Made by a program: the position numbers and the translations under genes | The notes under the pieces: generated by a model | The model's database searches: none | Told to the model about the DNA's origin: nothing | Seen by the model: only the letters and a program-made list of their open reading frames with translations | In this document: positions 3,312 through 54,600 of the stretch, piece after piece | How the letters are laid out: each line of letters starts with the position of its first letter | How positions within the stretch are numbered: the stretch's first letter is position 1 | Virus record (IMG/VR): IMGVR_UViG_3300005100_000002 | Span: 1-64,000 of that record | Source of the DNA: a virus | Reading direction: 5' to 3' (one strand) | DNA length: 64,000 nucleotides

Positions 3312-4114
3312 GCTTCACCTCCTGCTAACTTCGCAATATCTGCTATATATTCTTTCTCGCTCATTATTCCCTGCTTAATGAACTGGCTCATTATATTTTT
3401 TTGGCTGCCTGTTAAATCAGCCTTGGTAAATTTAGAAGTAGCTGCCCTCTTCCTAGCAGCTTCGACCCTGGGGGCCGAGGGGGAAGTCTTAGTCGCCGCA
3501 AACTTATCCGGAAACATTTCTTTGACTTGTTTCTCGACCATGGTAGCCACCCTGGCAAACGGAGCGCCTTCGTGCTTGTCGGCTACAGTATCCGCATATT
3601 CAGACATCTCTTTATCGGACTTGTACCAGTCATTGTCCTTAACCCATTCGTCGAATTTGCTGTTGACAGACTGCTTGGTCTGAGAAGGTGGCTCTATCGA
3701 CTCCTTAACGGCATCAATCTGCTCGTCTATCTTATCGACTTCATTGACATCAGCCTCCTCTATAGCTGTTTTTTTCTTTGCTTTCAGCCCGGCGAGTTCT
3801 TTTTCCAGCCTACCTACTTCGGCCTTGAAAACTCTTTCGTTGTGCTGTTTTAGTTCGTCAAGGCTGCCGGACATGTCGACCATTTGATGCTTTTGATCTT
3901 TCAGGCTTTTGCGCATGCTGTCTTGTATATCCTGTCCTTTACGGATATATTCTTCAGCATCTACAAAATTCGTGTCATCGCCCTTAAAGGATTCCTTGCC
4001 TTGCCAACCCATTTCTTTCGCTAACGATTCTATGGGATCTTCTGTCCCATCACCGCTTTGTGTCGTTTCATCTCCTGCGTTTTCATCTTTTGTAGTTGTT
4101 GCTGTCTCTGGCAT
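3308..4114 (-). CDS. scaffolding protein (candidate)
   Basis: 268 aa with an acidic N-terminus and long Lys/Glu-rich helical segments (LKQHNERVFKAEVGRLEKELAGLKAKKK...). Lies between the portal side and the capsid gene. Confidence 0.6.
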   Translation of the reverse strand: MPETATTTKDENAGDETTQSGDGTEDPIESLAKEMGWQGKESFKGDDTNFVDAEEYIRKGQDIQDSMRKSLKDQKHQMVDMSGSLDELKQHNERVFKAEVGRLEKELAGLKAKKKTAIEEADVNEVDKIDEQIDAVKESIEPPSQTKQSVNSKFDEWVKDNDWYKSDKEMSEYADTVADKHEGAPFARVATMVEKQVKEMFPDKFAATKTSPSAPRVEAARKRAATSKFTKADLTGSQKNIMSQFIKQGIMSEKEYIADIAKLAGGEA

Positions 4115-4414
4115 AATCTCTGTCCTTCCCGGGTTCTACACCCATAAATACAAAAAGCTTCACGAGGGATAATAGTATTGACGGTTTACTATTTACCCAA
4201 GGAAGCTCTTCGCGTTCTTGGCTTACCCGGATACGTTCAGTTAAGGAGGTATCCGGTTGTTATTTTAATCTATTTTTATGTCATGGTTGCCCGTAACAAT
4301 ATTTTATATGGTTGTCAACTCAAATCTTTTCCCCTGCCAATATTTTCTTCAGAAGACTGGCTATAAAACCAAGTCCCCGGATCAATGCTTTTATGGTTTC
4401 TTTTTCGGTTTCAG

Positions 4415-4741
4415 TCATGTTCTAACTACCGGATACGCCTGACTATCGTTATGTTCTATGTCGAAATCCGCCGCAAGTGCTACCTTCTGGATATCGGGGT
4501 TTGATAGCAATGCGCCTATCGCCTTGTTTATCCAGGACAAATGATGTTTTGGGTCATAATTATAGTCAAGCTCGTCGTTATTAATTTTTTGTTTCAAATT
4601 GTTGAGCTTACCAAGCATGTCCTGTCGTGTCATCACAATCCCTGAGTCAAAACTATCGACAAATATATACCATCTGTCCAAATGAACCTGATCTTTAAAC
4701 ACACCATCTTTTTTTAAAAACAAAGAACAATTAGTTCCCAT
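4415..4741 (-). CDS. hypothetical protein
   Basis: 108-aa ORF whose start overlaps the stop of the GroES-like gene by 1 nt. Confidence 0.55.
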   Translation of the reverse strand: MGTNCSLFLKKDGVFKDQVHLDRWYIFVDSFDSGIVMTRQDMLGKLNNLKQKINNDELDYNYDPKHHLSWINKAIGALLSNPDIQKVALAADFDIEHNDSQAYPVVRT

Positions 4742-5058
4742 TACAACCCCAATACTGCCAGAACGTCCTGATCGTTCAGAAGCACATAATCCTTGCCATC
4801 ATCACCCATCATCTCTATCCCTGCGAACTTGGCATAAGACACCCGGTCACCAACCTTTGCCCATGGTTGGCCGTCTGCGAACTCCTGCCAGGCTGATGGG
4901 CCGATATCAACCAAAATCCCTGTAGTCGCAGCTCTCCGTTCCTGCTCCATGCTTTGAGGGGCAAGGTAGATGCCGCCTTTGGTTTTTTCCTCGATTCTGT
5001 CGGTTTTTACGAGAAGATGGTGGCCAGTACTTTTTATTCCGATTTTATTTTTGCTCAT
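4741..5058 (-). CDS. groES: co-chaperonin GroES (Cpn10) homologue
   Basis: 105 aa, alignable over its full length to Cpn10: GHHLLVK..EEKTKGGIYLAP..TGILVDIG..KVGDRVSYAKFAG..YVLLNDQDVLAVL. Confidence 0.8.
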   Translation of the reverse strand: MSKNKIGIKSTGHHLLVKTDRIEEKTKGGIYLAPQSMEQERRAATTGILVDIGPSAWQEFADGQPWAKVGDRVSYAKFAGIEMMGDDGKDYVLLNDQDVLAVLGL

Positions 5059-6043: not shown

Positions 6044-6856
6044 CTATACCTCCTTATTCTGAAAGATTAGAGATGGCTGAAAATGCTTGGTAAGTTTGTT
6101 ACTCTTTTTTATATTTTCAATAGCTGGTAGTAACTGCAAATTCTTTAATGCCCAACAACGTTGAAAATCTATATCGCTTGGTTTGTCAAAATTATACACA
6201 CTGATTGGTGTTTTGTGATCCAAGTGAAGCTTGCCGGCCATATAATCGCTCCATGAATACCCTACAGGCATAGTTTTCTCTAAATAGCGCTTGAGCTGTT
6301 TATAAGTGTAGCCTAAAATCTCAAATGTTCGCTGTCCATTTTTTCCATTCTTTAAAGACTGATAAAGATTTGATGCTATATTGTCACAAAGCTTTCCCTT
6401 TAAAGTTGCTCTTCGTTTTTTATTGCTCTTAGTATAGGTCCTGCGGCACTGTTCTGGATTTTTCTCTTTGTGCCGCTGGGCGTATTCTTTTGCTTTTTCT
6501 GGATGGTTTTTGCGGAAATTAGCTTGATAAAGTTTCTGTTTTTCTGGGCTTGCTAATCGCCTTGCCTTACTTGATTCATAATATTCTTGTTTGTGTGTTT
6601 GATAATAATCAGCATGTAGCTTTTTATTTTGTTCTGGATTAGCTAATCTCCACTCTTTACTTTTTACTGCTATTCTTTTTCTATTAGCTGTGTTATATTT
6701 TCTCCTACAATCCTTACAATGCCTTTGAAGACCATCCCAAGTGCATCTATTTTTAGAAAATAATTCTAAAGGCAGCCATTGCCTGCAACCTGGACATCTT
6801 CTTGTTTCAATCCCATCAATAAACTTATGTTCTATCCTTACCGCTTTCATCATCAC
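6044..6856 (-). CDS. HNH homing endonuclease
   Basis: 270 aa. N-terminal CPGC..CKDC zinc ribbon, Lys-rich repeats in the middle, and C-terminal HLDHKTPIS...NLQLLPAIENIKKSNK (HNH). Paralogue of 60881..61543. Confidence 0.8.
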   Translation of the reverse strand: MMMKAVRIEHKFIDGIETRRCPGCRQWLPLELFSKNRCTWDGLQRHCKDCRRKYNTANRKRIAVKSKEWRLANPEQNKKLHADYYQTHKQEYYESSKARRLASPEKQKLYQANFRKNHPEKAKEYAQRHKEKNPEQCRRTYTKSNKKRRATLKGKLCDNIASNLYQSLKNGKNGQRTFEILGYTYKQLKRYLEKTMPVGYSWSDYMAGKLHLDHKTPISVYNFDKPSDIDFQRCWALKNLQLLPAIENIKKSNKLTKHFQPSLIFQNKEV

Positions 6857-13754: not shown

Positions 13755-15155
13755 ATGAATTATTTATACACCGGAGACTGTCTTGATATTTTAAGGCAGA
13801 ATATCAAGGCTGAGTCTGTTGATCTGGTTTATATCGACCCACCGTTCAACAGTAAACGAAACTACAACATCTTTTTTGATGACAAGGACATAAAATCTCA
13901 ACGAGTTGCCTTCACCGACACGTGGTCATTGAAAAACACACAGGATTCGTTGAGTGAGTTACAGGCGATGAAGACTGAAAGCTTGCATCAATTATTGATG
14001 GCATATTCGGATGTTGCGCCCTTCGCTTTTCCGTATTTGGTTATGATGTCTTTACGGATTATAGAGCTTCGCAGGGTTTTGAAAGAAACCGGCAGCTTTT
14101 ATTTGCATGTTGATCCAGCTATGAGTCATTATTTGAAAACTATCTGTGATGTAATTTTCGGGATAGGCAAATACCGTAATGAGATTGTCTGGTGTTATTC
14201 AGGTGGGGGTGTGCCACGGAACGATTTCCCTCGAAAACACGATATCATTTTGCGCTACAGTAAAACCAAGGATGTTGTTTTCAATGTTGAGAGAAAAGAC
14301 TATAAGGACAACACCCAGGCGGTTGGCAAACACAGCACACTTAGCAATGGCAATGTTGAGATTGATCTCGAACGTGGCACCCCGGTCACGGATTGGTGGA
14401 CTGACTTGAAAACGATTACCGGATGGGCGAAGGAAAAGTTAGGATACCCCACGCAAAAACCTTTGTCGCTGCTTGAGCGCATTATAAAAACCAGCTCGAA
14501 TAAAGGCGATGTTGTTCTTGATGCGTTTTGTGGCTGTGGAACTACTATAGACGCGGCTGAAAAGCTTGGGAGAAGCTGGATCGGGATTGATATTTCTATT
14601 ATTGCTACTGGCATAATCGAACGAAGATTAAGGGCTACTTTTGGAAAGGTTCTCTCAAAATACAGAGTGAAAGGCATTCCCACTGACGAGCAAACAGCGA
14701 AAAAGCTTTGGGAGCGAGATCCTTTTGCGTTTCAGGACTGGTTCATAACTGAATTTGGAGCATTTTCCTCAACCTTCGGCACAAAGGGCGCTGATAAAGG
14801 AATCGACGGCATTGCAAAATATAGAGCAGGAAGAGACGGCAAGACTATCAGAGCTGGCTTCCAGGTCAAGGGTGGCAAGGTGCAGTCAAAAGATATTGAC
14901 GCCTTGTGGGGTGCGATGAATAAGCATAAATGTGATCTCGGTGTTTTCCTGTCTATCAATAAACTGACCAAGCCAATGCTTGAGACGATATCGAAATCCG
15001 GTTATGCAGAGGCTTCAGGCAAAAAGTTTCCTAAGCTACAATTCTTAACCTTGAAAGATTTTTTTGCGAACAAGCATCTGCGCCTGCCGCCGGAAAACAT
15101 TACTTTTGAATCGGCACGGCTGAAGGGTAAGGGGTTCACGCAGATAGAGTTCTAA
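13755..15155 (+). CDS. beta-class N6A/N4C DNA methyltransferase fused to a C-terminal Mrr-like restriction-endonuclease domain
   Basis: Motif IV IDPPFN precedes motif I VLDAFCGCGTTIDAA. The C-terminal GADKGIDGIAKY...GFQVKGGKVQSKDIDAL matches the Mrr_cat-type PD-(D/E)xK pattern. Strong SD (AAGGAGG). Confidence 0.85.
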   Translation: MNYLYTGDCLDILRQNIKAESVDLVYIDPPFNSKRNYNIFFDDKDIKSQRVAFTDTWSLKNTQDSLSELQAMKTESLHQLLMAYSDVAPFAFPYLVMMSLRIIELRRVLKETGSFYLHVDPAMSHYLKTICDVIFGIGKYRNEIVWCYSGGGVPRNDFPRKHDIILRYSKTKDVVFNVERKDYKDNTQAVGKHSTLSNGNVEIDLERGTPVTDWWTDLKTITGWAKEKLGYPTQKPLSLLERIIKTSSNKGDVVLDAFCGCGTTIDAAEKLGRSWIGIDISIIATGIIERRLRATFGKVLSKYRVKGIPTDEQTAKKLWERDPFAFQDWFITEFGAFSSTFGTKGADKGIDGIAKYRAGRDGKTIRAGFQVKGGKVQSKDIDALWGAMNKHKCDLGVFLSINKLTKPMLETISKSGYAEASGKKFPKLQFLTLKDFFANKHLRLPPENITFESARLKGKGFTQIEF

Positions 15156-15187
15156 GATCTGATCTCACGAAAAGGAGAAAATTGATC

Positions 15188-15388
15188 ATGCAAATAGAAA
15201 AACTACAATACAAACAACCAGGACGGGAGCTGCCCTGCTTCCGTTGTCACGGTATGGCGGCAGAATATAGGGTTACGATGGCTATAGGCGAGCATGGCGG
15301 CAGGCTTATTGTGTGCTTGTGCAAGTCATGCGCGCAACTGACGGAAACCGAGCTTTATGCTCATTTTGTGAGAGGTGCAGAAAAATGA
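15188..15388 (+). CDS. small Cys-rich protein
   Basis: 66 aa from the ATG at 15188, with GGAGA 10 nt upstream. Contains CFRC...CLCKSC. Confidence 0.5.
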   Translation: MQIEKLQYKQPGRELPCFRCHGMAAEYRVTMAIGEHGGRLIVCLCKSCAQLTETELYAHFVRGAEK

Positions 15389-15986: not shown

Positions 15987-16159
15987 TGAAAAAAGAACTA
16001 TGGATTGAACTCGGATATAGCATTATCCTGGCAATTATTATTATGTGCGGCGCGCTGCTGGTCGAAAGCACGAACTGGGACTTAGTGGTGCAATCTTGGC
16101 CGTATGACCTGGAGTTTGGGCTTCCTACTGGGTGGGAAGATGCTGTTATTCGACCATAA
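15986..16159 (+). CDS. small membrane protein
   Basis: 57 aa from MKKELWIELGYSIILAIIIMCGALLV. The upstream extension shown in the ORF track is unlikely. Confidence 0.45.
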   Translation: MKKELWIELGYSIILAIIIMCGALLVESTNWDLVVQSWPYDLEFGLPTGWEDAVIRP

Positions 16160-16168
16160 AAAAAGTTC

Positions 16169-16199
16169 TTGACAAATAGATTAAGGCATGCTTTATTAT
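16169..16199 (+). promoter_or_regulatory. sigma70-type promoter with an overlapping palindrome
   Basis: TTGACA (16169-16174), a 17-nt spacer, then TTTATT/TATTAT. The inverted repeat CATGCTT..AAGCATG spans the -10. The first 11 nt (cttgacaaata) are identical to the promoter at 29208. Confidence 0.5.
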
Positions 16200-16204
16200 C
16201 AAGC

Positions 16205-16343
16205 ATGAATCGAATTCTATTAAATATTTTGAATTTTTCCGGTAATCTGAGTTGCTTTAACGCTCAGACCGCTAATTCGACGGCATTAACTCCGGTGAAT
16301 TATATTAAGGGCGATGAGATTAATTTCTTGTCGCCCTTTTTTT
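16205..16343 (+). ncRNA. candidate ~140-nt small RNA (promoter to intrinsic terminator)
   Basis: Bounded by the promoter above and the terminator below. Contains a CCGG/CCGG-closed junction with a CUGAG..CUCAG hairpin. The only ORF has no SD and runs through the terminator. Confidence 0.4.
16307..16343 (+). terminator. rho-independent terminator
   Basis: AAGGGCGAUGAGA-UUAAUU-UCUUGUCGCCCUU forms a 13-bp stem including G-U pairs, followed by a run of U. Confidence 0.6.
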
Positions 16344-16391
16344 ATGCTTAAAAGGATATCAGCCCAATTAGCGCTATCCTGATATCGCCAT

Positions 16392-16856
16392 CTTGTTCTA
16401 TCGGGTTTTCCGATAAGTGGAAATAGAGAGGGCTAATGTATTGTCGCAAGGCAATACGGACTTAATGCTTAACCGGAGAGCTTCTGTATCCGGCAAATTA
16501 AGAGTGTGGGCGCCGAGTGGTAATTCTCGACCCATGACCTGTAGCCTTGAAAAAGGTTGTCCACGGGGCTTGTTATGGTGCATAAGCAATAAAACGCCAT
16601 AGCGGGTGCAGTGAGGGCTAAGTCGCTGTATATAACATGTCGATATGCTTAATGGATGGCATGGGGTTGAACACCACCCAAGAGTTTCGAGTAATATTCC
16701 ATAGCCGAGGATTTTATTGCAGCCCAAACGCTATCTTTCCCCTTAAACACCTTATTTTTAGGGCAAGGAACTGAACAGGGATATAAAAGATTTTAGTTTG
16801 TTTTTATGCTATCGGAAAATCCTATAAGCTTGCTATCGGAAAAACCGATACAAGAA
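16392..16856. mobile_element. ORF-less ~465-bp element bounded by ~25-nt imperfect terminal inverted repeats
   Basis: Left end tcttgttctatcgggttttccgataag. Reverse complement of the right end: tcttgtatcggtttttccgatagcaag. Each end is itself a TATCGG/CCGATA hairpin. An extra partial right-end copy lies at 16809-16829. Confidence 0.35.
16425..16730 (+). ncRNA. candidate large structured RNA (unclassified)
   Basis: Plus-strand hairpins with GNRA loops: GUAUUGUC-GCAA-GGCAAUAC at 16438-16457 and UAGCCUU-GAAA-AAGGUUG at 16542-16559. Nested helix CUUAAU/AUUAAG with CCGGA/UCCGG at 16461-16502. GGGCU occurs three times against a single AGCCC. Only junk ORFs with non-ATG starts. Confidence 0.35.
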
Positions 16857-16939
16857 AAAACACATCGCACTTCTGGAACTCTTTATTCAGATCCTTGGCC
16901 GCTTTCTTCCTGCGATACTCAAGCCAGGCACGGATTGTT

Positions 16940-17140
16940 TTAAAATCTCGCTTTTTCTCTTTTCTCGTTAGTCTCTTTTTTTGTTTCATCATAATCCTCC
17001 AATTCGCACCATTCAGGGATCGTAGTAACAGCCGCATCAATAACCCTTGCACCACTGTGCCTGCACACTCTCTGACTGTTTTTGTTATAACGCCTGTACG
17101 GACAGACCGCACAATTATTTAATATTATTATTTTCGGCAT
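16940..17140 (-). CDS. small Cys-rich protein
   Basis: 66 aa starting MPKIIILNNCAVCPYRRY..., with GGAAAGGA upstream. Confidence 0.55.
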   Translation of the reverse strand: MPKIIILNNCAVCPYRRYNKNSQRVCRHSGARVIDAAVTTIPEWCELEDYDETKKETNEKREKARF

Positions 17141-18765: not shown

Positions 18766-20442
18766 TTATGTGTTAGTATTAAAATAAAAATTAATCTCTT
18801 GGTCTTTACAGCTTAACCTTTTTGTTGATTTGTCAAAAAATAACTTCACGCCGCCTATTTCTCCAAATTCTCTGTTTTTCTTAATGAATAAAATAGCATC
18901 AGGATCTTGCTCCGATTTGTTTTCATCGGGAGGCCGCCATAAAACAAGAACATTGTCGGCAAGGTTTGTAATATCGCTTGAACCCTTTATATCGACCTTA
19001 TCGGGTTTATCCCTGTCCGAGGCTGTCTTCCTCGGATGAGCTACAAGATGGCAGTGAACCCTATACTTTCTTGTAAAAGTTAAAAGTTTTGATACAAATT
19101 CTTTTTGTGCCGCATACTCATCATGTTGTGATAATTTTACTCGCATTAAAGAATCTACGACAAAATGCTTAACCCCATATTTTCTAACGGCATATTCAAA
19201 GACATCAAAAATATGCCCTGACTCGATTTCTTCGGAAACATCTAAAATATACATTTTCTCATAGAGCCATTCAAAAACACTATTAATTTCAGCAGTAGTT
19301 GGATGTCTTTTACCGAGAGCCTGACACACAGCCCATCGCAAATAACGTGCAGGCCGCAATTCAAGGGATGCTATGCAAGTTTTTATATTTAACGATGTAA
19401 GATTCAAAAAAACCTGATTAAGCATGGTTGTCTTGCCCGATCCGTTTTGCCCCGACCATATTGTCAATTCGCCGGCCCTCCACCCCTTAAGGAAAAAGTC
19501 GATTCCCGGAAAGCCGGTCGGCGTTCCATCCAATATGTTTGGGTTTTCAAATAGATCAACGACCTCTTCATAATAATCGCTTGCCGCTGCTATGGTATTC
19601 GGAGGATATTCTGTGGCAGTATCAAAACAATCTTGCATGTTTTTTTTAGGCACTTTGTTTTTTAAACAATCCAATGCATCCTTGTGAGGAAAGGCCACGC
19701 TTTTGCACCGCCAATTACCAAGCCTTGGGATTAAAACGCTTACTGCATTATGGCCAGCCGCATCGTCATCCATACAGAGGTAGATATCTTCAAATTGTTC
19801 TAAAAAATTCCACTCATTCTCAATCCACCTGTGATCATTCACGCCGGAAGGCAATGAAGTAACGCCCATGAATCCATATTGATCTAATGCCATGCAATCG
19901 AATTCACCCTCAGTTATTATGAGTGTTTTCCCTATGATACTGTCCCGATTGAACAAGCAAGGCTCCGCATTTTTTTCCTGCCAGAATTTTTTATCTAGGG
20001 TTCTATACTTCACGTTTACTAAAGCCTTGTTTTTATAAAAAGGCAGACCGATTTCATTCTTTTTGTTTAAAAATATCTTGAACTTCGACAAAGTCTCTTT
20101 AGTAAAGCCACGATGTTGTAAAAATTGCATCGCTGTTTGGTTTATAGGCAAAGGCTTGGGGGTTGGCCGTGAATAAACTTTAGGCTGGATTGACGTATTG
20201 GTTTTCAAGAAAACCGGCTGATCTCCGAGCTTCCGCTGTAAATTATAAAACGATCCAGTTAAGCCGCAATTATTCAAACGCATACAATTCCAAGCACCAG
20301 ACTCAAGATTAATGGCAAATGTTTTTTCACCTTTATCGCCGCCATGGCAAAAAGGACAAAGCATGATAGCGTTTATACCGCTTGGCCTACTAACTTCTTT
20401 AAACTCAAACCCTTTATCTAAAAGATATTGCTTAACCTTCAT
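18766..20442 (-). CDS. bifunctional primase-helicase (T7 gp4-like)
   Basis: N-terminal zinc finger CPFCHGG...CMRLNNCG. TOPRIM ITEGEFDCMAL...DDDAAG. DnaB-type Walker A GQNGSGKTT with the C-terminal helicase motifs. Confidence 0.9.
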   Translation of the reverse strand: MKVKQYLLDKGFEFKEVSRPSGINAIMLCPFCHGGDKGEKTFAINLESGAWNCMRLNNCGLTGSFYNLQRKLGDQPVFLKTNTSIQPKVYSRPTPKPLPINQTAMQFLQHRGFTKETLSKFKIFLNKKNEIGLPFYKNKALVNVKYRTLDKKFWQEKNAEPCLFNRDSIIGKTLIITEGEFDCMALDQYGFMGVTSLPSGVNDHRWIENEWNFLEQFEDIYLCMDDDAAGHNAVSVLIPRLGNWRCKSVAFPHKDALDCLKNKVPKKNMQDCFDTATEYPPNTIAAASDYYEEVVDLFENPNILDGTPTGFPGIDFFLKGWRAGELTIWSGQNGSGKTTMLNQVFLNLTSLNIKTCIASLELRPARYLRWAVCQALGKRHPTTAEINSVFEWLYEKMYILDVSEEIESGHIFDVFEYAVRKYGVKHFVVDSLMRVKLSQHDEYAAQKEFVSKLLTFTRKYRVHCHLVAHPRKTASDRDKPDKVDIKGSSDITNLADNVLVLWRPPDENKSEQDPDAILFIKKNREFGEIGGVKLFFDKSTKRLSCKDQEINFYFNTNT

Positions 20443-21754: not shown

Positions 21755-22079
21755 CCCTCCGTTTTAATAGTCCTTCCAATAAAATCAAGTAGTTGATGCT
21801 ATCGCCGATCTTTTCGTTTACAATATGTGCGTTTAGCCGCTCAGGACAACGCCTTGCCCACAAAACAAGATCATCAACGCTGACATCATGTTTAACCTTC
21901 ATTCCCATTAAAGCTTCTTCGGGAGTAGTATTGCGCTTTCGAGCTGCCATTTCAAAGTTATGAAAGCGACTCTCACCGGAAGCATACTCGAAAGCTTTGT
22001 TTTTTAATGTTTCTTGAATAGCGCTGCATCGTTCTTCTATAATTGTTCCAAAGTTTGTTATTGGATCATTTTCTTTCAT
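21738..22079 (-). CDS. all-alpha hypothetical protein (MazG/DUF1599-like, tentative)
   Basis: Start placed at MKENDPITNF. The helical pattern with conserved acidic residues gives only weak resemblance. Confidence 0.4.
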   Translation of the reverse strand: MKENDPITNFGTIIEERCSAIQETLKNKAFEYASGESRFHNFEMAARKRNTTPEEALMGMKVKHDVSVDDLVLWARRCPERLNAHIVNEKIGDSINYLILLEGLLKRRVAGNE

Positions 22080-22437
22080 CGTTTCGAGCCTTTTCAAAAT
22101 AAAACACACCATTGTGGGGACTTATAGTAATAATGCCGAAGTCTATAGCTACCTTGGCTATATAAAATTTTCCAACTCGTTCATGCAGTGTCTTTATCAT
22201 TTGTTTAAACTGTTTTGGCGAATACGCTCTTTTGTAGTGGTTGCATCTCCTACACGATGGCATAAGATTTGAAATGCTGTCAATATCCTTAACGTCGTGG
22301 AATGCCATAGCAGCAGCGCTGCTCCGCTTGGGTAGATAATGATCAACCTGCATATCCTTGTAAGCTATAGCTGTGCCGCAATATGCGCAATGTCCCTGGT
22401 ATTTATTATACACCTTTTCCCGAAGTTCTTTCTTCAT
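22066..22437 (-). CDS. HNH endonuclease
   Basis: 123 aa with CAYCG...VDHYLPK...NLMPSCRRCNHYK. Confidence 0.8.
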   Translation of the reverse strand: MKKELREKVYNKYQGHCAYCGTAIAYKDMQVDHYLPKRSSAAAMAFHDVKDIDSISNLMPSCRRCNHYKRAYSPKQFKQMIKTLHERVGKFYIAKVAIDFGIITISPHNGVFYFEKARNDERK

Positions 22438-23677: not shown

Positions 23678-23854
23678 ATGGGCAAACCCGTTAAAAAATT
23701 AATTATAAACTGCAAACATTGTAAGGGTAGCGGTGTGCTTAAGGATGGGATTTGTGTAGAATGCCAAGGACATGGATACAAGCTTGTGGATAAGGAAATT
23801 TATTACCGACAGCTAAGGATGGAGCAGAAGCATCGGCTGGAGAAGGAGAAATAA
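23678..23854 (+). CDS. DnaJ-type CxxCxGxG zinc-finger mini-protein (58 aa, below cutoff)
   Basis: MGKPVKKLIINCKHCKGSGVLKDGICVECQGHGYKLV.... TAATG overlap with the next gene. Confidence 0.5.
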   Translation: MGKPVKKLIINCKHCKGSGVLKDGICVECQGHGYKLVDKEIYYRQLRMEQKHRLEKEK

Positions 23855-24687
23855 TGCACCATAAGGCAATTGATTTGACTGGACAGCGGTTTGGGCATCT
23901 GGTGGTTGTTGAAGAGGCGGGGAAAAACAAGTATAGCAGTAAAAAATGGAAATGCCAGTGCGATTGTGGAAAACTTAGCACCCCATATGGCTGTGCCCTA
24001 AGGTCTGGACGTGCGACGACTTGCGGATGCAGAACAGGAAAAGAATTTAACCCAAAAGAATACAAGGTAGCTTATTGCAAGGCTAATCGAAAACAAATAA
24101 CATTAAAACATGCGGAATATTATAAAACCCACGCTGCGCGAATATCGGCTTATCGCAAGGCTTACAGTAAGGACAACGCTCTGTACGATACTCATATATT
24201 GAGTATTTCGTGGGCGGAAGAAGGCAGGACTCGCAGAGACCCGGGCAAAAAGGACGATCTCCAAGTAAAATGCTCACTATGCCAAAGCTGGTTTAATCCT
24301 ACCAACTCACAAGTAAGTGCTCGCTCAAACTCGATTAATGGCAGCCGTCGTGGCGAAGGTAGTTTCTATTGCTCCGATGATTGCAAAAGAGCATGTCCAG
24401 TTTATAATCAAACAAAATTCCGAAAAGGGGATGCCCCAAAACCAGATTCCCGCCCCGGACAAAGAGAATGGAGAGAACATGTTATAGCATGTTCGGAATT
24501 TTCCTGCGAGAAATGCGGCAAAGTCCTTGAGGAAAAAGATTTATCCGCCCATCATATTAAATCGGTATCTCAATATCCTCTTGAAAGCATGGATATTGAT
24601 AACGGGATGGCTCTTTGTAAAGATTGCCACAAAGCTGTGCATTCGGGAATCGGTTGCCGGCCTGTTGACCTGAGATGTAGTGCATAA
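23854..24687 (+). CDS. HNH homing endonuclease
   Basis: 277 aa. N-terminal GQRFGHLVVVEE...WKCQCDCG and C-terminal CEKCG...HHIKSVSQYP...NGMALCKDCHKAVH. Confidence 0.8.
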   Translation: MHHKAIDLTGQRFGHLVVVEEAGKNKYSSKKWKCQCDCGKLSTPYGCALRSGRATTCGCRTGKEFNPKEYKVAYCKANRKQITLKHAEYYKTHAARISAYRKAYSKDNALYDTHILSISWAEEGRTRRDPGKKDDLQVKCSLCQSWFNPTNSQVSARSNSINGSRRGEGSFYCSDDCKRACPVYNQTKFRKGDAPKPDSRPGQREWREHVIACSEFSCEKCGKVLEEKDLSAHHIKSVSQYPLESMDIDNGMALCKDCHKAVHSGIGCRPVDLRCSA

Positions 24688-29208: not shown

Positions 29209-29237
29209 TTGACAAATATAACAAGTGTCCTTATTGT
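29209..29237 (+). promoter_or_regulatory. sigma70-type promoter (twin of the one at 16169)
   Basis: TTGACA (29209-29214), a 17-nt spacer, then TATTGT (29232-29237). It shares cttgacaaata with 16168-16178. Confidence 0.5.
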
Positions 29238-45629: not shown

Positions 45630-48600
45630 TTAATCGGCAACTAAAAACTTACGAAATCGCTCATTTTGTGTTTTTGCGATAAACGACATCCTGGTGTCAA
45701 TGGTCTCTATCAAATCCCGCTTCTTGTCAGACGACAAAGCCTTAGACCCCATGACGACCGCCTTCCTCTTCCGCAGCTTGCCAAGCGCTAAAGATTGTTT
45801 CCTGAATATTTTCGCGAAAACCTTGACGCCTTTGGTTTTTTCATCAAACTTGATAGCTTCATCTCGATCCGTCTTGATTAAAACCTTAAAGCCCTGCTCA
45901 GCTTCGTTAGCCCTTTGCAGGTTATCATAAAAGTTCGTTATGTCTTTGCCAGCGCTGCCAATAGGTTCTCTGGAAATAAACCCTCTTATGCCAGGCATCA
46001 CACGATACCAGTCTTTTGTAACTTCCGGCACATCCCCTGTCTCAAACAATGGATCTATGATATCAAGGCCAAGCTTACCCAAACCGCCCGACCAACCCCT
46101 AACCCAATTTTCCATCTTTAATGGCGAAAGATTAGTCACTTTGCCAATCTCTCTAAGAACACTACTGGTATACTGGTGCGCTCTTTGGCCGGGAGGCAAT
46201 CGTTTTATGGTTTCACTTTCAATAGGCCGCTTCATAAAGAAGCTCCAGTTTGTCATATTTTCGATTAAAGCTAAAGGCAATGTAGGAATAACCCCAGGCA
46301 CAACGCCTTCCACTATGGAATGAGCTATTGTTTCCAATTCTTTGGGATCGTTGAGGACAATATAGTCAAAAATCCTTTCCGGTAAAGAACCAAATATAAG
46401 CCCAAGCTCAAAAGGCTTCGGCAGGGATATTATGGGCATGTCTTTATCAATAACAATATTCCAAAAGAAGTTTTTCCTCCAACCAGGTAAAGAGTTGTAC
46501 CGTTCTTTTCTTTCATCATCACTATTATTAAACAGCCATAAAGCAATCGAAGGTATCGTTATCCCAAGCACCAGCCGGAGTAATGTCCGTCCCGGATGCT
46601 TTTGTAATTTCCTGCGCAATATGTCAGTCCCCTGTACATTAGCATTCCAGAAAGCCGTTATTTGATTAATCCGACGCTCCTCCCCTATTCTGCGAAAGTC
46701 CAGGGTGCTTTCTCTTGCCGCTGCCGTCGCTTCGGATGTTGTAGCACCCTTATCCTTGGCTCGCTTAAAAACTCCCAACCTGGTGGACTTCTCCATAACC
46801 TCAGAGGCTATCCGAAGGTACTCTATAGGATTGTATGTCTTTAATCCTTTCTTAAAGCCTAAGATGTCCCTGGCGGTCAGATTCAGGGTAGTCCTGTCCA
46901 TGCTGGTAAAATATGACTGTTCGCCACCACCTGCTTTGAATTCCTGATAAAGGTCGCCCTTTTTCATTAGTTCAAAGAAGCCTTTGCCAAAGTCAATAAA
47001 TGGTATATAGCCATATTTGGAATACACCATGGCTGAAAATTGATCCCTTACCGGATTGCGCATGATAAATTCAGCGGTCAAGGTAGCGCCTGCACGAAGT
47101 AGTTTTGCAGGGCCGGATAAGATCTTTATGGCCATGCTCATTTCTTGAGGTGAATAATAATCTATAGCCTTGTGGACATCCGGAGGAACTCGCCAGTAAT
47201 GCTTAACCCCATCCACAGGAACTATAATAGTGCCCTTGGGCTGAATTGGCGACCGGATTGATACCTTAGTCCCACCTCTTGGGCCAGGCCGTTCAGGCAC
47301 GTCTTTCGTTAGATATTGCGGCTGTACCTCTTCAATAACTTCGGCAAGGTCAGGTGTTAAATCCTTTAGTTCAACTATCTTTTTATTGAGCTTTATTGTT
47401 TCCAACAGCTTAATGGTTTTATAGGTATTGGACACAGACGATTCAATGGTAGGTATTTTCCTGAGTTCAGATCCCTTTATCTTTTTAAGAGGATCTTTGC
47501 CGCCATGAACCTGCTCGCCAACCGTATCCATCTCCCGCAAAAACGAAGCATAAAACTCTGACTCAGGTTTTGCCTTTATTCCATCATAAACCTTTTTAGA
47601 CAACCAGCCTTCTTCTACCAATAATTTCAAAAGGGTATCGTCATATTTGCGCTGCTCCTTTGAAACATCCCGGAGCTTTTTAATATTATCCCCATATTTC
47701 TTTTCAAGGGCTTTTACCACCTGCGACGATGCTTCTATATCTGTCCCTTTGATGTCCGGTCTAAACGTGGCCAGGGCAATATCCCTTTCAGCTATCCTGA
47801 GCGTCTCATAATCCTCGTATTCCTGGGGAGACAAGTCTTTGACTATTTCCTTAAGAGATTGAGAACCTTCGATATATTCAGGCTTACCACCTTCATCATA
47901 TCTGTGGGGACCTTTGCCGGCAACAAACACTTCGACAATCCCGCCCTTGCCCCAAACCTTATTTATCTGATCTTGTATCCTTTGGATAACCTTTGGATCT
48001 TTTGCTTTGGCCGCCAACCGTATTGCAGGGAATTCAGCAAAAACGAATTTGGTATAAACTTTGGCGATAAAATCCTTGGCGACTTGCTTGGTGAGTTGTA
48101 GTTTTTTAGGTTCAAAAGCTATATGTTTTTCTTTATAGGTTTTGATAACGTCTTCATCTGCCGGCAACGGTTTTTCTATGGGCGCTTTTACCGGAGCTTT
48201 GTACTTCTTGAGTAGTTCTTTATAATCTGTCGGTGGTTTCTCTTTTGCAAATAATGGCATGCCTTCAACAAGAGCGGCCCGTTTTAGGGCTGGGGTTATG
48301 GTGAAAGATTGTTGGGTTGTTGTTTCGGATACCCGCTCTATTTTACCACCAAACAGCTCAGCGACAGCATTGCTCTGCATTGCGACTGCGTTGCTAAAAG
48401 ATGTTCCGCTCTCTATTTCTTTTTGTAATGATTTCAATTCATTCGCCACCTGAACTCTGTTAACTGCGAACATTTGACGTTCCCCAGTTATAGGACTTTC
48501 AAAAACACTTGGGCCGTCTTTTTTGGCAACCACAAGAGATTTTTTCACATCCTCTATTGTATAATCATCACCAATATATTCTCTTTTTGATTGCCACCCA

Positions 48601-51600
48601 GTTGTGTCAATTTCAGTAGCCCCGACTTCCGCTCCATCTTTTTTCCCAAATTTCTTGAGATATTGAGGTATCATGCGGTCGTATAGTGCGTATGTCCAAA
48701 CTCCGCCCGTTTTGAGATCAAGCCCTGAGAAAATAGCAGTTCCCTTATCATCATCCCCAAACTTGCTTAATGCCTTATCTGTTAAGTCTTTACCTACATG
48801 CCCCTGCAACTCATCCACTGAAAGATTTGATTTTGCTATAACCTTTTCACCATCATAGTCGAAAGCATCTATCCTGTAGCCAGATTTCTTCGTATACAAA
48901 ATAGTTACGCTTTCGAGGTGCTTGCTTAGGTCGTATCTGTCAGCCGTTTGCTGTCCCGTAACCCAAGAAACCTTGTCCATCCCTTGTTCGGCTGCCATGC
49001 GGATAATGCGTTTTAACACTACTTCGTGCCAGTTCTTTTTGAATGGTATGTCAGGAACAGCTTCTCGTGTCGCACCATCAAGAGCTTCTCTTTTGGTCGG
49101 TGCGGCAAATTGCTGAATACCATTTTCGTTTAAAACCTCCCATTTATTCTCACCAAGTTCAGGAATAAATTCTTGAATTGTCCACTCAGCAGGTAATATT
49201 CCCCGATACCCCTTTTTTCTGCCCTCCAATGCAAAATCGCTTTGTAGCTCTTCAATGAATAAAATCTTATTGCCATCGGCGTCCGTTCTTTCGTTTGTCC
49301 GGACGTGGGCGAATACGTTTGGTTCGTCCCAATGGGGAGATACAAACCCCGCATCACCTTCTTTTTCAATTTGTTCGTATCTGTTTTTTAGATATTCATA
49401 TCGTGCTAATTCAGCAACGGTAAGTTTTTTATCGCCTTGCCTAACGTAAGAATTTAATTTTGCATATTCACTATATTCTTTTTTTGAAAGAAGTGGTTTT
49501 TTGCCAGGCAGCGTAAACAAAAGCTCACGATAGTTTTCTTTTTCGCCTGGGAGCTGGTATTGTGCAAATTTGGTAGTGTCGTATTTTTTAATTTTAGTTA
49601 AAGCATAATCTCTTGCTTCTTTTTCTGTTTTGTATTTAGAAACAGGCAGTTGCAACACATTGCCAGGAACATTGAAAATATGAAATGAAACATTCCCTTG
49701 TTTTTCTACTCCCTGATAATCTAAATCTTCTTCAGTATAAAAAACATCCCCACTCTTCACAACCTCCTCAACCACAACCTGATTTTCTCGAAGCAACCCC
49801 ACCAGTTCATCCCGCACAACAACCTTCTTACCCTCAAGCATTGCCTCAACATCCATCCACTCAAGCTCTGCCGCTTTAATCCCAGGCTGTTTCCTAAGCC
49901 ATGGCATCACCGCTGAAGCTTGCATCTTAGCAGGCATTTTGTCTTGAACGGTTTTAATAACTTGTGAGTAGAAGCGTTCAGCCTGTTTAATTGCCTGATA
50001 TCCAGGGACTCGTAAGGCCCTATCAATACCAACTCCTGTCCCTGGCTTGCCTATCTCAACATAACTCCTTGCATCATATATTAATTGACAAAGCTCTGCG
50101 TCTGCCATTTTTAACGAAGGCATGATTTTTCGCATAAACCTTCTAATAACCGCCACCACCTTGTTTACCCAATTGGATTCAGGGTTCGTCACAGCCTCTC
50201 TTGACAGCCATTCTTCAGCAGCCAGAACCCTTCCTTTATATGTGGCGGTATCAAAGCCATAGCTATCAGCTATCGTCTGGATCGCCGGTTCTTTGGCGGA
50301 ATAAACCTTATCCATAATGTCGCCAAATTCTTTGCCAAGGACTGCCCGCAAGCCAAAGTGACCAAAAGACTCATGCAGTAAAGTCTTAACGGCATCTTCA
50401 GGAGATGCTTGATTATCAGCTACGATATAAACCTTGCCACGAAAATATACGCCATCAACAATCTGGCCTTCGCTGTATTTTAATATTTCTTTGGGTAGTT
50501 CTGATTGAGACTGAACGACTTCGACTATAGGCGCATTCTTCCACCGAGCAGTTATTTTATTAATATGGCCTTGCAGTTCAGATGCTACAGAAGCTTCACT
50601 TACCAATGGATAAGGTTTGCGTATTAGAAAAAGAGGCTTTATTTCAGTAAGCTCTTCAAAATGTTTAGCTGCTTTCGCATAAGCATCGGTAGCATCCAGC
50701 AAATCTTGTTCCATTTGATTGCCGGAGCGTTTAATCCCTGTTTCTTCAGCTATCTCTTTAAGCGTCGTCTTGCCGGCTTTATGTTCATCATAATAAGCCT
50801 GAAGCTCTCCCATTTCATCATGTGTGTGTTGCACCATAACTCTTGCATACTCTATGTCTTGAGATTCCATTTTCTCAACGGCTTCAGCGATATAATCTTT
50901 ATCGGCCACAGATTTAATTTTATTCCTAACTGCTTCAGATATATCTTGAGAAAGTAGCCAATTCTGGAAAGGATTTAACAACACTGCGCCGGTCAAGTCT
51001 CTTACTTCAGTATCGGCTACTTCCTCAAAAATTCTATCTATATCTTCCGGCTTTAATTTTTCAGGAGCTACGTCTAATATTTTTTTGTACTTAGCTTCCG
51101 GAACAGCCTTTTTTGCAGGTGCCTTGGGCTTAAATTTCTTACTAATTATTGTTGAAGGGAATGCACTTTCGACACGTTTTTGAAAATCAAACAATTCGCT
51201 GCCTATAATTTCAAAGGTCCCATCATTAGGAACCTCGAATTTAAAAACAGTGTCAATTTGCTGTAGAGGATTAATGCGCATTTTTAACAGCTCTCTTGCC
51301 CTTTCTACACTTTCAACCTCAGCTTCTTTTAGGCTACCTTCGATGGCTTTATCAATCTCGGTCAATAAATATGTCTTTTGTTGCTTAGGCGTTACCGCGG
51401 CTTCTTCTTTTTTGGTAAGATCAATGGTTATTTCTTTGCCTTCTGGGGTTGGAGCTACTTCGATCTTTTCTTCTATCACTTTTGGCTCTTCAGTCTTTAT
51501 CTCTACCATAGCTCTTTTTCTATATCGTCCACCACGCTCAAGGCCTGTAACCATGTTCGCCGGCATCTCTATAGGATTGCTTGCACCGTCAGGCAAAATA

Positions 51601-54600
51601 TCCACTGTGTCGGCATCTTTATGCACTTTAACGACATCTCCATAGAATACCTGTCCACCACTATTTTCAAATTTAACATAGTCATCTACATAGACTTTTA
51701 TGGATTCTTTGGCTTTTGGCTCGACTGGCTTTTCTTTTTCAGGAGTTACTTCGATTTTTTCTTTTTTAACTTTAGGTTTTACTCCAGGAACGACAGGTTT
51801 AATAATCTTGGCCTTTTTAACCGGAGCAAGCTTGATCTTTTCTTTTTTTTCGGGAATTGCTTTAATTTTCTTTTTTTCTATTTTCGGAGCAACCTCTGGT
51901 ATAGGCTTGGCCTCGATCTCTTCCCTAACGGCCTCTGGTGGCTTCGGCTTGGCAACATCAGGTGCTATTGGCTTTGCGAGCTTCGCTATTTCCTTTTCGG
52001 CAATTTCACCTTCACGCCTACGACCTTCCCCGGTATCGACTTCACGAAGTCCTGGAGGCCGCTCTCCACGTCTGGCACGTAATCCTTCGGCTTCTCTTTC
52101 TTCTTTGTGTTTTCTGAGGAGTCGATCTGCTTCTGTTTCTTCCCTGTGAACACCATAGCTTACCCCCAAACCTTTATATGTATATTTTTCGCCTTTATCA
52201 TTTGTGAATTCAAGCTCAGCCCCGGACAACTTTTCGTTCAGTTTATCTGCCAGCGCTTCTGCTTCTTTTTCTGTTTTTGCACGGATAATGAATTCATCGC
52301 CACTGATATGATAGCTGTCGGGAGTAACTTCAGAAGCCGCCTTAGCTACAGTCTGAAGCAACTCATCGCCTGCCGCGTGCCCGGCAAAGTCATTGACATA
52401 TTTTAGAGAATCAACATCTATATATGCTTTGGGCTTAGTGATCCCTTTTTCGAGATCAACGGCTTCAGCTTCCTGATAGGCACGTTTGTTCGGAATCCTT
52501 GTAACTGGATTAATAAGGAGTTCCGCCCTCAGCTCTTCTTGTGACATCTCGGATATCAATTTTCTGCGAGCGATATCTTTTCTGCGTTCGATCTTAGTCG
52601 GTTTCTTAATTTCCGGCTCCACATCTACGGCCGGCTTCTTTATTTTGGAATATGGCCTCGTCTGTCTCTTCTCGACAAATGTTTTCAGATCATCCATAGA
52701 GACTTCGGTTATATCCCCAAGCCCTTTCCAGCCTTTTTCATAATTAGCGAGATACCCCTCGCTTGCAGCCTCAAGAGAAGGATAGCCGACCATAGCCTTA
52801 TGTTCATCAAACTTGCCGGTCTCAGGGTCTATCTGATCTACGATATAAGCCCTATCACCTTCTTTGCGTTCACCTGCATTAACAAATACGTCTATCTGTT
52901 CACCGTCTTTTCCCGCTGATCGCTTGAAGTATCCATAATGACCACCAGACATCGTGATCGACCATTTTTTTCCTTCGGGGGAAACGCCTGATCTCTTTGA
53001 ACCTTCTGGATTCTCGATTGAGATATCGAAACCTTGAACTTTGATATGAGCTTTTTTATAGTTTCCTGCTTCAATTTGAGCTTCGGTCGGGGACGCATCA
53101 ACTTCTCGAACTTGAGCTTCTATCTTTGCCGGGTCCTCTACATTCAACCTGCCATGAACCAAATTAAATAAATCCGGCCTTTCTTTTACAAGCGTTTCGG
53201 CTTCAGCTATTCTTGCTTTTCTTTCAACATCTCGCATGCCCGGTTCTATTAAATCATTCCACTGAGTAGCTGCCGTTTGCGCTTCCTCAACGGTCATTCC
53301 TTTCAGTAACCGTTTTTGATCAGGGGTCGTTTTTAAGCCCTTGCCCTCTTTGTCGACTTCTACAGGTATCGCTATTTTCTCAGGCTTATATCCACGGATT
53401 AAGAACTTATTGATATCCGGCTCTATTTCAGCTTTGGCCTTGATTCGCTTTTCTTCTGTTATTTTTTCCTCAAACACTTCGGCAGATATTTCGGCAGGTC
53501 TTCTTGGGGCTTCTTCAAAAACCTCTGCGGCCTCCTTTATCCTCTCTTCAGAGGTTAATGCCTTCCCGGTTAAAAGCTCCTTCGCGGTGATGCCTTTTTC
53601 GCCTTCATCAAGAAGAGTATCACGGGCAGCAGATATCGGTTTTTCGACCGGCTCGACCTCTTCTGCAACGAACATCTCGGTTATTTGTGTTGCAAGGGCG
53701 GGATCTTGAGTGGCTATTTTTTCAATCACAGGCGCCATATCATCTATGGTTACTTCGCCACTTTTGATGTCTTCAGCTAATTGCCCCGATTCAACAGCGT
53801 CTCTAAATATTCCGGTTTCTTCTGAAGTTGTTTGTGTAAAATCTGCATTTATATCAATCGGAACGCCTGAATCAATAAGGGGCTCAACCATATCGGCCCA
53901 TGATTGTCGTAATTCTTTGTCGTCAATATTTTTTGCAATATACTCAGCTGCCTTTTTTCTTTCTTCTGGATTCTCACTGTTTAATTGATTTTTTACACTA
54001 TTTCTTTGCAGGCTTGTTATCCCTTGTGCTCCTACCCCAAAAAGCACACTCATGGTAAGGGCCGGAATAATAGATTCAACCGCTGCTTCTTGCCATGCTC
54101 CTTCAGGAAGAAGCCCTATCTCTTCATCTACCTTGGCGCCCAAAGCCCCCTGAATCATTTCGGTCGGGACTTCATTCAATAAAGCATTTTTCGTAAGATT
54201 TTTTGCAAAAGTTTTTACCGGAGTCTTTAAAAGTTCTTTGGCTGTAGTCTTTAAAGGCTGTGCCGCAAGCTTGCCCCAACCAAAAGTTACCATACCTATA
54301 AGGTTTGAGACGGTCTCTATCCCGCCTTCAATAATACCTTGTTTAATTGCGGCTCCATGTGCTGTTTTTTCATCTATGCCTTGTTGGACATATTCTTCTT
54401 TTTTCTGCCCATATACGCCAAGCCCGTGAATTCCAAGCGTGGCGCCTATGCCTCCAACAAGCCCTCCGATTACTGTACCTGGTGGCCCGAAAACGCTTCC
54501 GGCAAGAGCTCCAGCCCCAACCCCAACCCCTAATGGCGCAAGCGATGGGATTGTGCTTTCGAGGCCGCCCATTATCCCGCGTCTTACAAAGCCTTCCTCT

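Follow-up and report, generated by a model that had tools for sequence, protein, structure and literature searches.

Phage morons are independent promoter-gene-terminator units which are inserted between conserved genes. Phages and prophages also harbor GOLLD and ROOL, orphan large structured non-coding RNAs (ncRNAs) which constitute Rfam families and were studied by cryo-electron microscopy (cryo-EM; PMC12286853). Here, we describe a candidate for a further RNA of the latter kind. It was found in the 64-kb stretch of DNA analyzed (positions 1-64,000 of the IMG/VR record IMGVR_UViG_3300005100_000002, called the window throughout), which represents the bulk of the ~69 kb genome of an uncultured phage. 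No nucleotide relative of the window was detected among the GenBank phages by blastn and megablast. The element in question (positions 16392-16856) occupies a gene-free stretch of ~450 bases. An initial inspection of the letters alone (the sequence-only reading) had placed it between a methyltransferase island and the end of the replication operon, and this site was confirmed as a convergent junction, at which the plus-strand accessory island (end at 16159) meets the minus-strand replication operon. Between the two identities offered at that stage, the new large phage ncRNA is now best supported, while the element of the miniature inverted-repeat transposable element (MITE) type found no support. 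Judged from comparative sequence analysis, we rate the chances as about even that the locus carries a new large phage ncRNA, in the form of a folded plus-strand core within an accessory cassette. In the best reading this candidate RNA is ~345-390 nt long. Matching no known RNA family, the element is most aptly regarded as a new candidate family among the orphan large structured RNAs, with two members to date and, as an unusual feature, a cassette bordered by palindromes. Because only one relative was found, it remains a promising candidate and not a proven RNA.

Relatives were gathered as contigs carrying homologues of the T7-type primase-helicase, which is encoded at 18766-20442 on the minus strand of the window. 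A single homologue of the element was found, on the 11-kb contig L003, which was binned with a metagenome-assembled genome of the Deltaproteobacteria and encodes a helicase 70% identical to that of the window. In L003 the element is found at the same convergent junction and in the same orientation. Its conserved core of ~345 nt (16462-16806, plus strand), devoid of an open reading frame (ORF) or Rfam match, showed 77-88% identity with one 1-nt indel. The non-coding DNA adjoining the core was 40% identical at most, with 28% and many gaps for the spacer between the left palindrome O1 (see below) and the core, 17-26% for the upstream leader and 37% for the right flank. For the helicase gene, 69% nucleotide identity was determined, with 37% at four-fold degenerate sites, a value close to saturation. 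Using blastn, five matches between L003 and the window were obtained, the element being the sole non-coding one. The core is conserved far above the neutral level, and identity drops sharply at its edges, which lie inside the cassette. Two further relatives, L001 (helicase 71% identical) and L002 (69%), were found without the cassette; in both, a bidirectional terminator is directly adjoined by the stop codons of the upstream gene and of the gene for the small basic protein at the end of the replication operon. Since the homologous junction exists there without it, the cassette is optional.

The collection of homologues by BLASTN from phage or metagenome data, proposed together with the sequence-only reading, succeeded only in part. 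Neither blastn nor megablast detected a homologue in GenBank phages, none was obtained from plasmids, and L003 itself was reached via the helicase relatives. Five exact or gapped core patterns searched in IMG/VR gave nothing beyond L003. One core pattern yielded a single unrelated chance match in the JGI metagenomes (L008) and L003's own contig only in the GTDB genomes. No further homologue was obtained with nhmmer and our covariance model R1 in the contexts of L001, L002, L004-L007 and L010 and in 80 IMG/VR helicase loci, and no matching element was found in the literature.

Conservation of this degree might in principle arise without any function, from a decayed gene or from neutral DNA which appears conserved as the result of recent exchange between lineages. 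Only two sequences are at hand, and the region is mosaic: orf68, a gene for a Cys-rich product of 67 aa located ~1 kb off (15185-15388, plus strand), shares 80% of its nucleotides with L003 5828-6028 and 74% at four-fold sites compared to 37% for the helicase gene, which points to recent patchy exchange, or to constraint at the nucleotide level, near the element. The steep fall of identity at the core edges within the cassette is not accounted for in this way, nor are substitutions which avoid breaking predicted pairs (P≈0.002) and leave 4-6 compensated pairs. A decayed protein gene, named beforehand as a finding that would overturn the RNA interpretation, was not encountered, as neither a residual ORF nor codon periodicity was seen. 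The absence of a credible ORF held up in both phages, with stop codons in all six frames. A plus-strand frame of 45 codons (16465-16602) is open in both; its substitutions are distributed 5/8/4 over the first, second and third codon positions (hand count), the reverse of what coding would produce, and a conserved small ORF was rejected. Overall, we regard a locus without function as the least probable of the readings considered.

To what extent does the core resemble a structured RNA? The whole window was compared with Rfam 15 and gave no match at gathering score. Even at E<=10, nothing credible appeared for window positions 16100-17000 and L003 positions 4200-5000, the weak hits being the upstream terminators. 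The families covered included GOLLD, ROOL, OLE, raiA, HEARO/omega-RNA, IS605-orfB, RNase P, transfer-messenger RNA (tmRNA), group I/II introns and riboswitches. The sequence-only reading had likewise given no match to RNase P, tmRNA, group I/II intron cores or common riboswitches, and the Rfam check agrees. ARAGORN detected neither transfer RNA (tRNA) nor tmRNA.

The predicted fold of the core starts with a chain of plus-strand hairpins, H1 (16468-16502), H2 (16506-16535), H3 with a GNRA loop (16538-16567), H4 (16568-16607), H5 (16608-16629), H6 (16636-16663) and H7 (16664-16679). A density of helices on the plus strand had been described before, and most of the hairpins listed then exist. The nested helix of CUUAAU/AUUAAG and CCGGA/UCCGG was recovered, with CCGGA/UCCGG and the outer CUUAA/UUAAG invariant in L003. 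The GGG..CGAG/CUCG..CCC helix (H2) exists, one C-G pair being compensated to U-A in L003. The GAAA-loop stem (H3) exists as well; its L003 loop reads GGAA, still a GNRA tetraloop, and one pair is changed to U-G. H4 (16568-16578 with 16597-16607), the clearest helix, forms all 11 pairs in both phages even though 6 of the 11 differ between them, and H5 and H6 each switch between G·U and G-C. Other proposals fared less well. The 8-bp hairpin with a GCAA loop (16438-16457) exists in the window, but lies outside the conserved core, in the spacer 16416-16461, and because 12 gap columns of the alignment span its 3' arm, where no matching sequence is present, L003 has no equivalent. Three GGGCU boxes, suggested to pair with one AGCCC, are only weakly compatible with L003. 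A motif in H4 resembling the 11-nt receptor of GNRA loops was rejected, as it is not conserved in L003.

When every helix which both sequences can form was sought, three further candidates were added. One is a possible pseudoknot of 8 bp between the H4 loop GCAAUAAA (16586-16593) and UUUAUUGC (16713-16720), one pair being compensated from A-U to G-C. The other two are short helices in the 3' part (16701-16705/16730-16734 and 16740-16743/16760-16763) with one compensation each. A U-rich 3' tail (16790-16806) follows a weak closing helix. Using RNAalifold on the window and L003 sequences, 97 pairs were predicted, with 4 compensated, 12 subject to one-sided changes with pairing kept and 0 broken. 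Our curated model comprises 77 pairs, all of them paired in both sequences, with 6 compensated and 8 one-sided changes; it was fitted to the two sequences it describes and is descriptive only. A non-circular test started from the structure of lowest energy predicted for the window sequence by itself, for which the real L003 substitutions were compared with random placement on the same base types. By this test 12-14 pairs were broken versus ~22 expected (P = 0.0002-0.005), and 4 pairs were compensated versus 1.3 expected (P≈0.04). Under this folding model, the L003 substitutions preserve the helices.

Folding of the whole element (465 nt) gave -145.4 kcal/mol for the plus strand (z = -3.67) and -117 kcal/mol for the minus strand (z = -1.67). 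On the plus strand, each sequence has 13-14 G·U pairs in the consensus structure, which favors this strand, because the same positions become C·A mismatches on the minus strand. The alifold energy was -89.9 (plus) versus -75.5 (minus) kcal/mol and the structure conservation index 0.82 versus 0.77. The restriction of GNRA loops to the plus orientation was confirmed, with GAAA turned into GGAA in L003. In terms of the predicted structures, the plus strand is favored as the functional one.

The converse assignment deserves consideration, namely that the conserved RNA belongs to the minus strand and forms a long structured 3' untranslated region of the replication operon, between the stop codon of the basic-protein gene and the terminator 16345-16307. 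No additional promoter or terminator would be needed. In L001 and L002 nothing separates the stop codon from the terminator, whereas the window and L003 have the element at this point, so that operon transcripts must traverse it. The minus strand of L003 reached z = -3.78, and the substitution test performed on the minus strand was significant as well (P = 0.003-0.03). However, most helices are common to both strands, which accounts for the minus-strand signal and explains the significance of this test, while consensus energy and structure conservation index are better on the plus strand. Moreover, all 8 one-sided changes of the curated model are switches between G·U and Watson-Crick pairs on the plus strand, and each of them therefore produces a C·A mismatch in one phage when read on the minus strand. 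There, H4 is down 4 of 11 pairs in the window and the GNRA loops become UUUC/UUCC. We consider a minus-strand origin of the signal unlikely.

The borders of the cassette are of a different nature. Imperfect terminal inverted repeats had been reported for the element and were found as arms of 23 nt (16393-16415 and 16834-16856) with 87% complementarity. Taken alone, this repeat is only marginally unusual, since an equal score occurred in 8 of 200 dinucleotide shuffles of a 901-nt region. The TATCGG/CCGATA hairpin seen at each end corresponds to a perfect 6+5+6 palindrome, TATCGG-N5-CCGATA, on which each arm is built, and the partial duplication suspected at the right end (16809-16829) turned out to be a third palindrome copy. 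The left boundary site O1 (TATCGGGTTTTCCGATA) is located at 16399-16415, O2 (TATCGGAAAATCCTATA, one mismatch) at 16810-16826 and the right boundary site O3 (TATCGGAAAAACCGATA) at 16834-16850. These are the sole matches at <=1 mismatch in 64 kb, with ~0.14 expected by chance (hand estimate); the palindromes are strongly over-represented and restricted to the element. All three are carried by L003, where O1 reads TATCGGAAAAACCGATA, i.e., with its centre in the opposite orientation, and O2 reads TATCGGAAAAACCGAT. The distance from the start of O2 to that of O3 is 24 bp in the window and 22 bp in L003. In the six copies of the two phages the arms are the same except for one base in the window O2, the 5-bp centres vary, and the hairpin is broken in one copy. 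Because the arms are invariant while the centres vary, flip and in one case break the hairpin, recognition by a symmetric dimer fits better than a structural RNA hairpin. The pattern argues for recognition of the specific sequence, either on the DNA by a dimeric protein or as hairpins in the transcript, over a purely structural hairpin or transposon end.

Palindromes of this kind raise the possibility of an element acting in cis at the DNA level, a protein-bound regulatory, looping, origin-like or recombination region in which they would serve as operators or iterons, while requirements of DNA binding or architecture would keep the interior conserved. Invariant arms with variable centres and the O2/O3 start spacing of 22-24 bp are operator-like, and a scan of IMG/VR for tandem palindromes supplied a parallel: in 9 contigs (L011-L019), TATCGG-N5-CCGAT(A/T) sites 22 bp apart flank a TTGACA -35 element in the layout TATCGGnnnnnCCGAT-TGACA-n-TATCGGnnnnnCCGATA. 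A shared XRE-type helix-turn-helix protein is encoded within ~2.5 kb of the tandem sites in 7 of the 9, in 5 cases with a small second gene beside it. The 71-aa protein of L014, the only member run through Pfam, matched HTH_3. The labels CI-like for the XRE-type proteins and cro-like for the small second genes, and any S24 peptidase domain, were read by inspection of the sequences and are not confirmed by family search. We read the arrangement as an apparently undescribed operator/repressor pair of GC-rich temperate phages. The phage studied here does not reproduce this arrangement, as tblastn with the repressors of those contigs gave no match in the window or L003. The XRE-type operators share with the element the 6+5+6 palindrome and, in L003, the exact tandem spacing of 22 bp (24 bp in the window), but the operator pair overlaps a good TTGACA promoter near a repressor gene, whereas a degenerate -35 element lies between O2 and O3, TTGCTA (13-nt spacer) for the window and TGCAAC for L003. 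With neither a cognate repressor gene nor an intact promoter overlapped by the sites, the element departs from a CI-type operator, and its palindromes, unlike the XRE-type operators, bracket a conserved block of 345 nt.

An origin was considered in the same context, as the phage encodes an O-like/DnaD-like replication initiator, and the 6-5-6 layout with an A-rich centre is presumably reminiscent of the lambda ori iterons. In a lambda-type origin, iterons occur together with the initiator. L001 and L002 share the replication genes, but not one TATCGG-N5-CCGATA site was found in their 12-15 kb, and an origin role is therefore unlikely. Operators of any type also leave unexplained the 345 gap-free conserved bases and the helix-preserving, strand-asymmetric substitutions. 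Action of the element as DNA is in our view rather unlikely.

Similar palindromic or hairpin ends on both sides, together with the presence of the element in some and its absence from other close relatives (missing in L001 and L002; the edges coincide with the palindromes), are also what a non-autonomous mobile element would leave behind. Such an element, MITE-like or a palindrome-associated transposable element (PATE) of the IS200/IS605 type, would have inserted into the 3' end of the basic-protein gene, the C-terminus of which reads into O3/O2, and its hairpin ends would be recognized in trans by a transposase. The genome is moreover rich in selfish elements in the form of HNH and EndoVII homing endonuclease genes. 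A search for further copies with target-site duplications had been suggested; it returned one copy in 64 kb by blastn, no duplication, and among related phages only the syntenic L003 element. The sequences CGCCATC/AAAAACA beyond the 23-nt arms and TTGTTC/CAAGAA beyond the palindromes are not direct repeats, and none flank the element in L003 either. Furthermore, the L003 ends share just the 12 palindromic bases, without the extended inverted repeat, and site and orientation agree between the two phages, in which neutral sites approach saturation. The spacer separating O1 from the core has diverged to the same degree as the outer flanks; selection on the core explains this pattern, recent movement of a whole unit does not. 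No transposase, TnpA, TnpB or IscB match was obtained among the ORFs scanned, many small ORFs not being part of the scan, HEARO and IS605-orfB were unmatched in Rfam, and no copies beyond L003 were detected in GenBank phages, plasmids, IMG/VR, JGI metagenomes or GTDB genomes. Inverted repeats, as present here, are also a feature of invertible segments (invertons); the ORFs scanned yielded no recombinase, and one and the same orientation was seen in both sequences, a sample (n=2) too small to speak against switching. We judge a mobile element to be very unlikely.

For the ncRNA as the preferred reading, the next issue is its transcription. A sigma-70-like promoter was read from the plus strand at 16169-16199, with the -35 element TTGACA at 16169-16174 and the -10 element either TTTATT (16192-16197, after TG) or TATTAT (16194-16199); it was not listed by the consensus promoter scan. 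The surrounding motif CTTGACAA (16168-16175) is conserved in L003 and reused at other intergenic sites, e.g., at 29209. A putative leader or short transcript of ~140 nt (16205-16345, plus strand) would end at a strong intrinsic terminator (16307-16345) consisting of a stem-loop (16307-16338) and a T7 run, which is probably bidirectional. The same promoter-leader-terminator layout is found upstream of the L003 element. The leader sequence is weakly conserved, and its alignment proved too poor to sustain a conserved fold. The leader is present alongside the RNA cassette; in L001 and L002 it is gone and the terminator alone remains. The unit 16169-16345 may represent an independent small RNA, or else a leader of the downstream RNA that is subject to regulation. 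Part of it, the segment 16321-16356 (3' half of the terminator, U tract and ATGCTTAA), recurs in diverged form at 16434-16477 just upstream of the core (repeat families D2 and D4), so that O1 lies in a segment between two copies of a terminator/U-tract motif; the spacer 16416-16461 is in part a diverged copy of 16321-16356. The L003 sequence GCTTAACCGG likewise follows a T6 run. Two further links were rejected: N4-like hairpin promoters, as the 3132-aa ORF of the phage encodes a polyvalent protein and not a virion RNA polymerase, and an N/boxB-type partnership with the small basic protein, as its gene is also found in L001 and L002, which lack the cassette.

We are aware of several points which weigh against a plus-strand RNA, besides the circular nature of the curated model. 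The two available sequences lend covariation little statistical power, and the patchy recent exchange indicated by orf68 could inflate the identity of the core. For L003 taken alone, both strands fold about equally well against shuffles (z = -3.2 for plus, -3.8 for minus). The minus strand is the one certainly located inside a transcription unit, the tail of the replication operon. Finally, in the stretch from the terminator (16307-16345) to the core, no recognizable sigma-70-type promoter was revealed by scan or inspection, for the window or for L003, which makes the production route the weakest point of the RNA reading.

In the mechanism we propose, the region is an accessory cassette carried by some members of the lineage at the convergent junction of accessory island and replication operon, bordered by one palindrome on the left and two on the right. 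Its payload, the core 16462-16806, most likely acts as a plus-strand RNA folded into a chain of at least 7 local hairpins, one with a GNRA tetraloop, followed by a less certain 3' domain and a possible pseudoknot between a loop and a distal segment. The RNA may be made by regulated read-through from the TTGACA promoter at 16169 or, alternatively, from a factor-dependent promoter at O1, where a bound factor would stand in for the -35 element. The palindromes might serve as protein-recognition sites which regulate, delimit or insulate expression of the RNA. As a committed guess, the RNA would act as a free molecule in trans during infection, e.g., as scaffold, decoy or sponge. It is possible, and we put it forward tentatively, that the two elements are the founding pair of an undescribed class of ~350-400-nt structured phage RNAs, carried on an optional cassette with protein-recognized 17-bp palindromes as borders and acting in trans (decoy, scaffold or RNA-only assembly), not as a cis-regulator.

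With regard to the genomic context, the genes of the window include those for the large terminase subunit, portal and major head protein, and SbcCD is encoded in addition to the replication proteins mentioned above. Neither an integrase nor an RNA polymerase turned up among the window ORFs scanned. The accessory island upstream of the element contains a gene for an N6/N4 DNA methyltransferase to which a C-terminal Mrr-like (restriction endonuclease fold) domain is fused (13755-15155, plus strand). The last gene of the replication operon, read from the sequence at 16822-16989 on the minus strand, encodes a small, very basic protein of 55 aa (MKQKKRLTRKEKKR...), for which no Pfam or PHROG family match was obtained. 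Proteins of this type (KQKKRLTRKEKKR...AWL...) end the replication operon in all four related phages, with the homologues located at L003 4174-4326, L001 ~3890-4000 and L002 7220-7375. The stop codon and 3' end of the window gene lie within O3/O2, and in both cassette-bearing phages the frame continues into O3/O2, so that the C-terminus is palindrome-encoded. Since L001 and L002 also possess the gene, ending directly at the terminator, it is not cassette-specific. Upstream of the O-like initiator gene, an intergenic inverted repeat of 33 nt (21272-21304/21348-21380, 76% complementary, 43 nt apart) was observed, a possible operator or origin-related site. Four free-standing homing endonuclease genes of the HNH or EndoVII type are distributed over the structural and replication modules (13-1236, 6044-6856, 22066-22437 and 23854-24687). 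The polyvalent protein of 3132 aa (45630-55028, minus strand) combines inorganic pyrophosphatase (PF18823), GGDEF and LPD38 domains.

Large structured RNAs whose function is unknown are a rarity, and those studied so far, GOLLD, ROOL and OLE, proved to be unexpected in their architecture. A new phage-borne example with clear boundaries, optional distribution and compact size would be tractable for probing, cryo-EM and functional tests. It is unusual for an RNA gene to be flanked by palindromic recognition sites; if real, this combination hints at a dedicated factor for regulation or processing. With only two sequences, the element at present counts as a well-defined lead, for which the covariance model R1 is ready for wider searches.

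How does the element compare with the systems known? MITEs and IS200/IS605 PATEs are likewise ORF-less, a few hundred bp long, equipped with hairpin-forming ends and present in some relatives only. The element differs from them by its single copy, the lack of a target-site duplication, its syntenic position in diverged phages and L003 ends which have no more than 12 palindromic bases in common; it is accompanied by no transposase among the ORFs scanned and by no omega-RNA signature. Like a moron, it is an accessory unit at the boundary of gene modules, beside a terminator and restricted to some relatives; its payload, however, is non-coding, and the recognizable promoter and terminator are found upstream of this payload, not around it. 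From GOLLD and ROOL it is set apart by the lack of any covariance-model match even at E<=10, a smaller size (~345-390 nt), only two representatives, the absence of adjoining tRNA genes (none with ARAGORN) and the palindromic sites on its flanks. With the same two RNAs it shares a length of several hundred nt, many hairpins with GNRA-type loops, and a stand-alone position in phage DNA outside the 5' leader of any gene.

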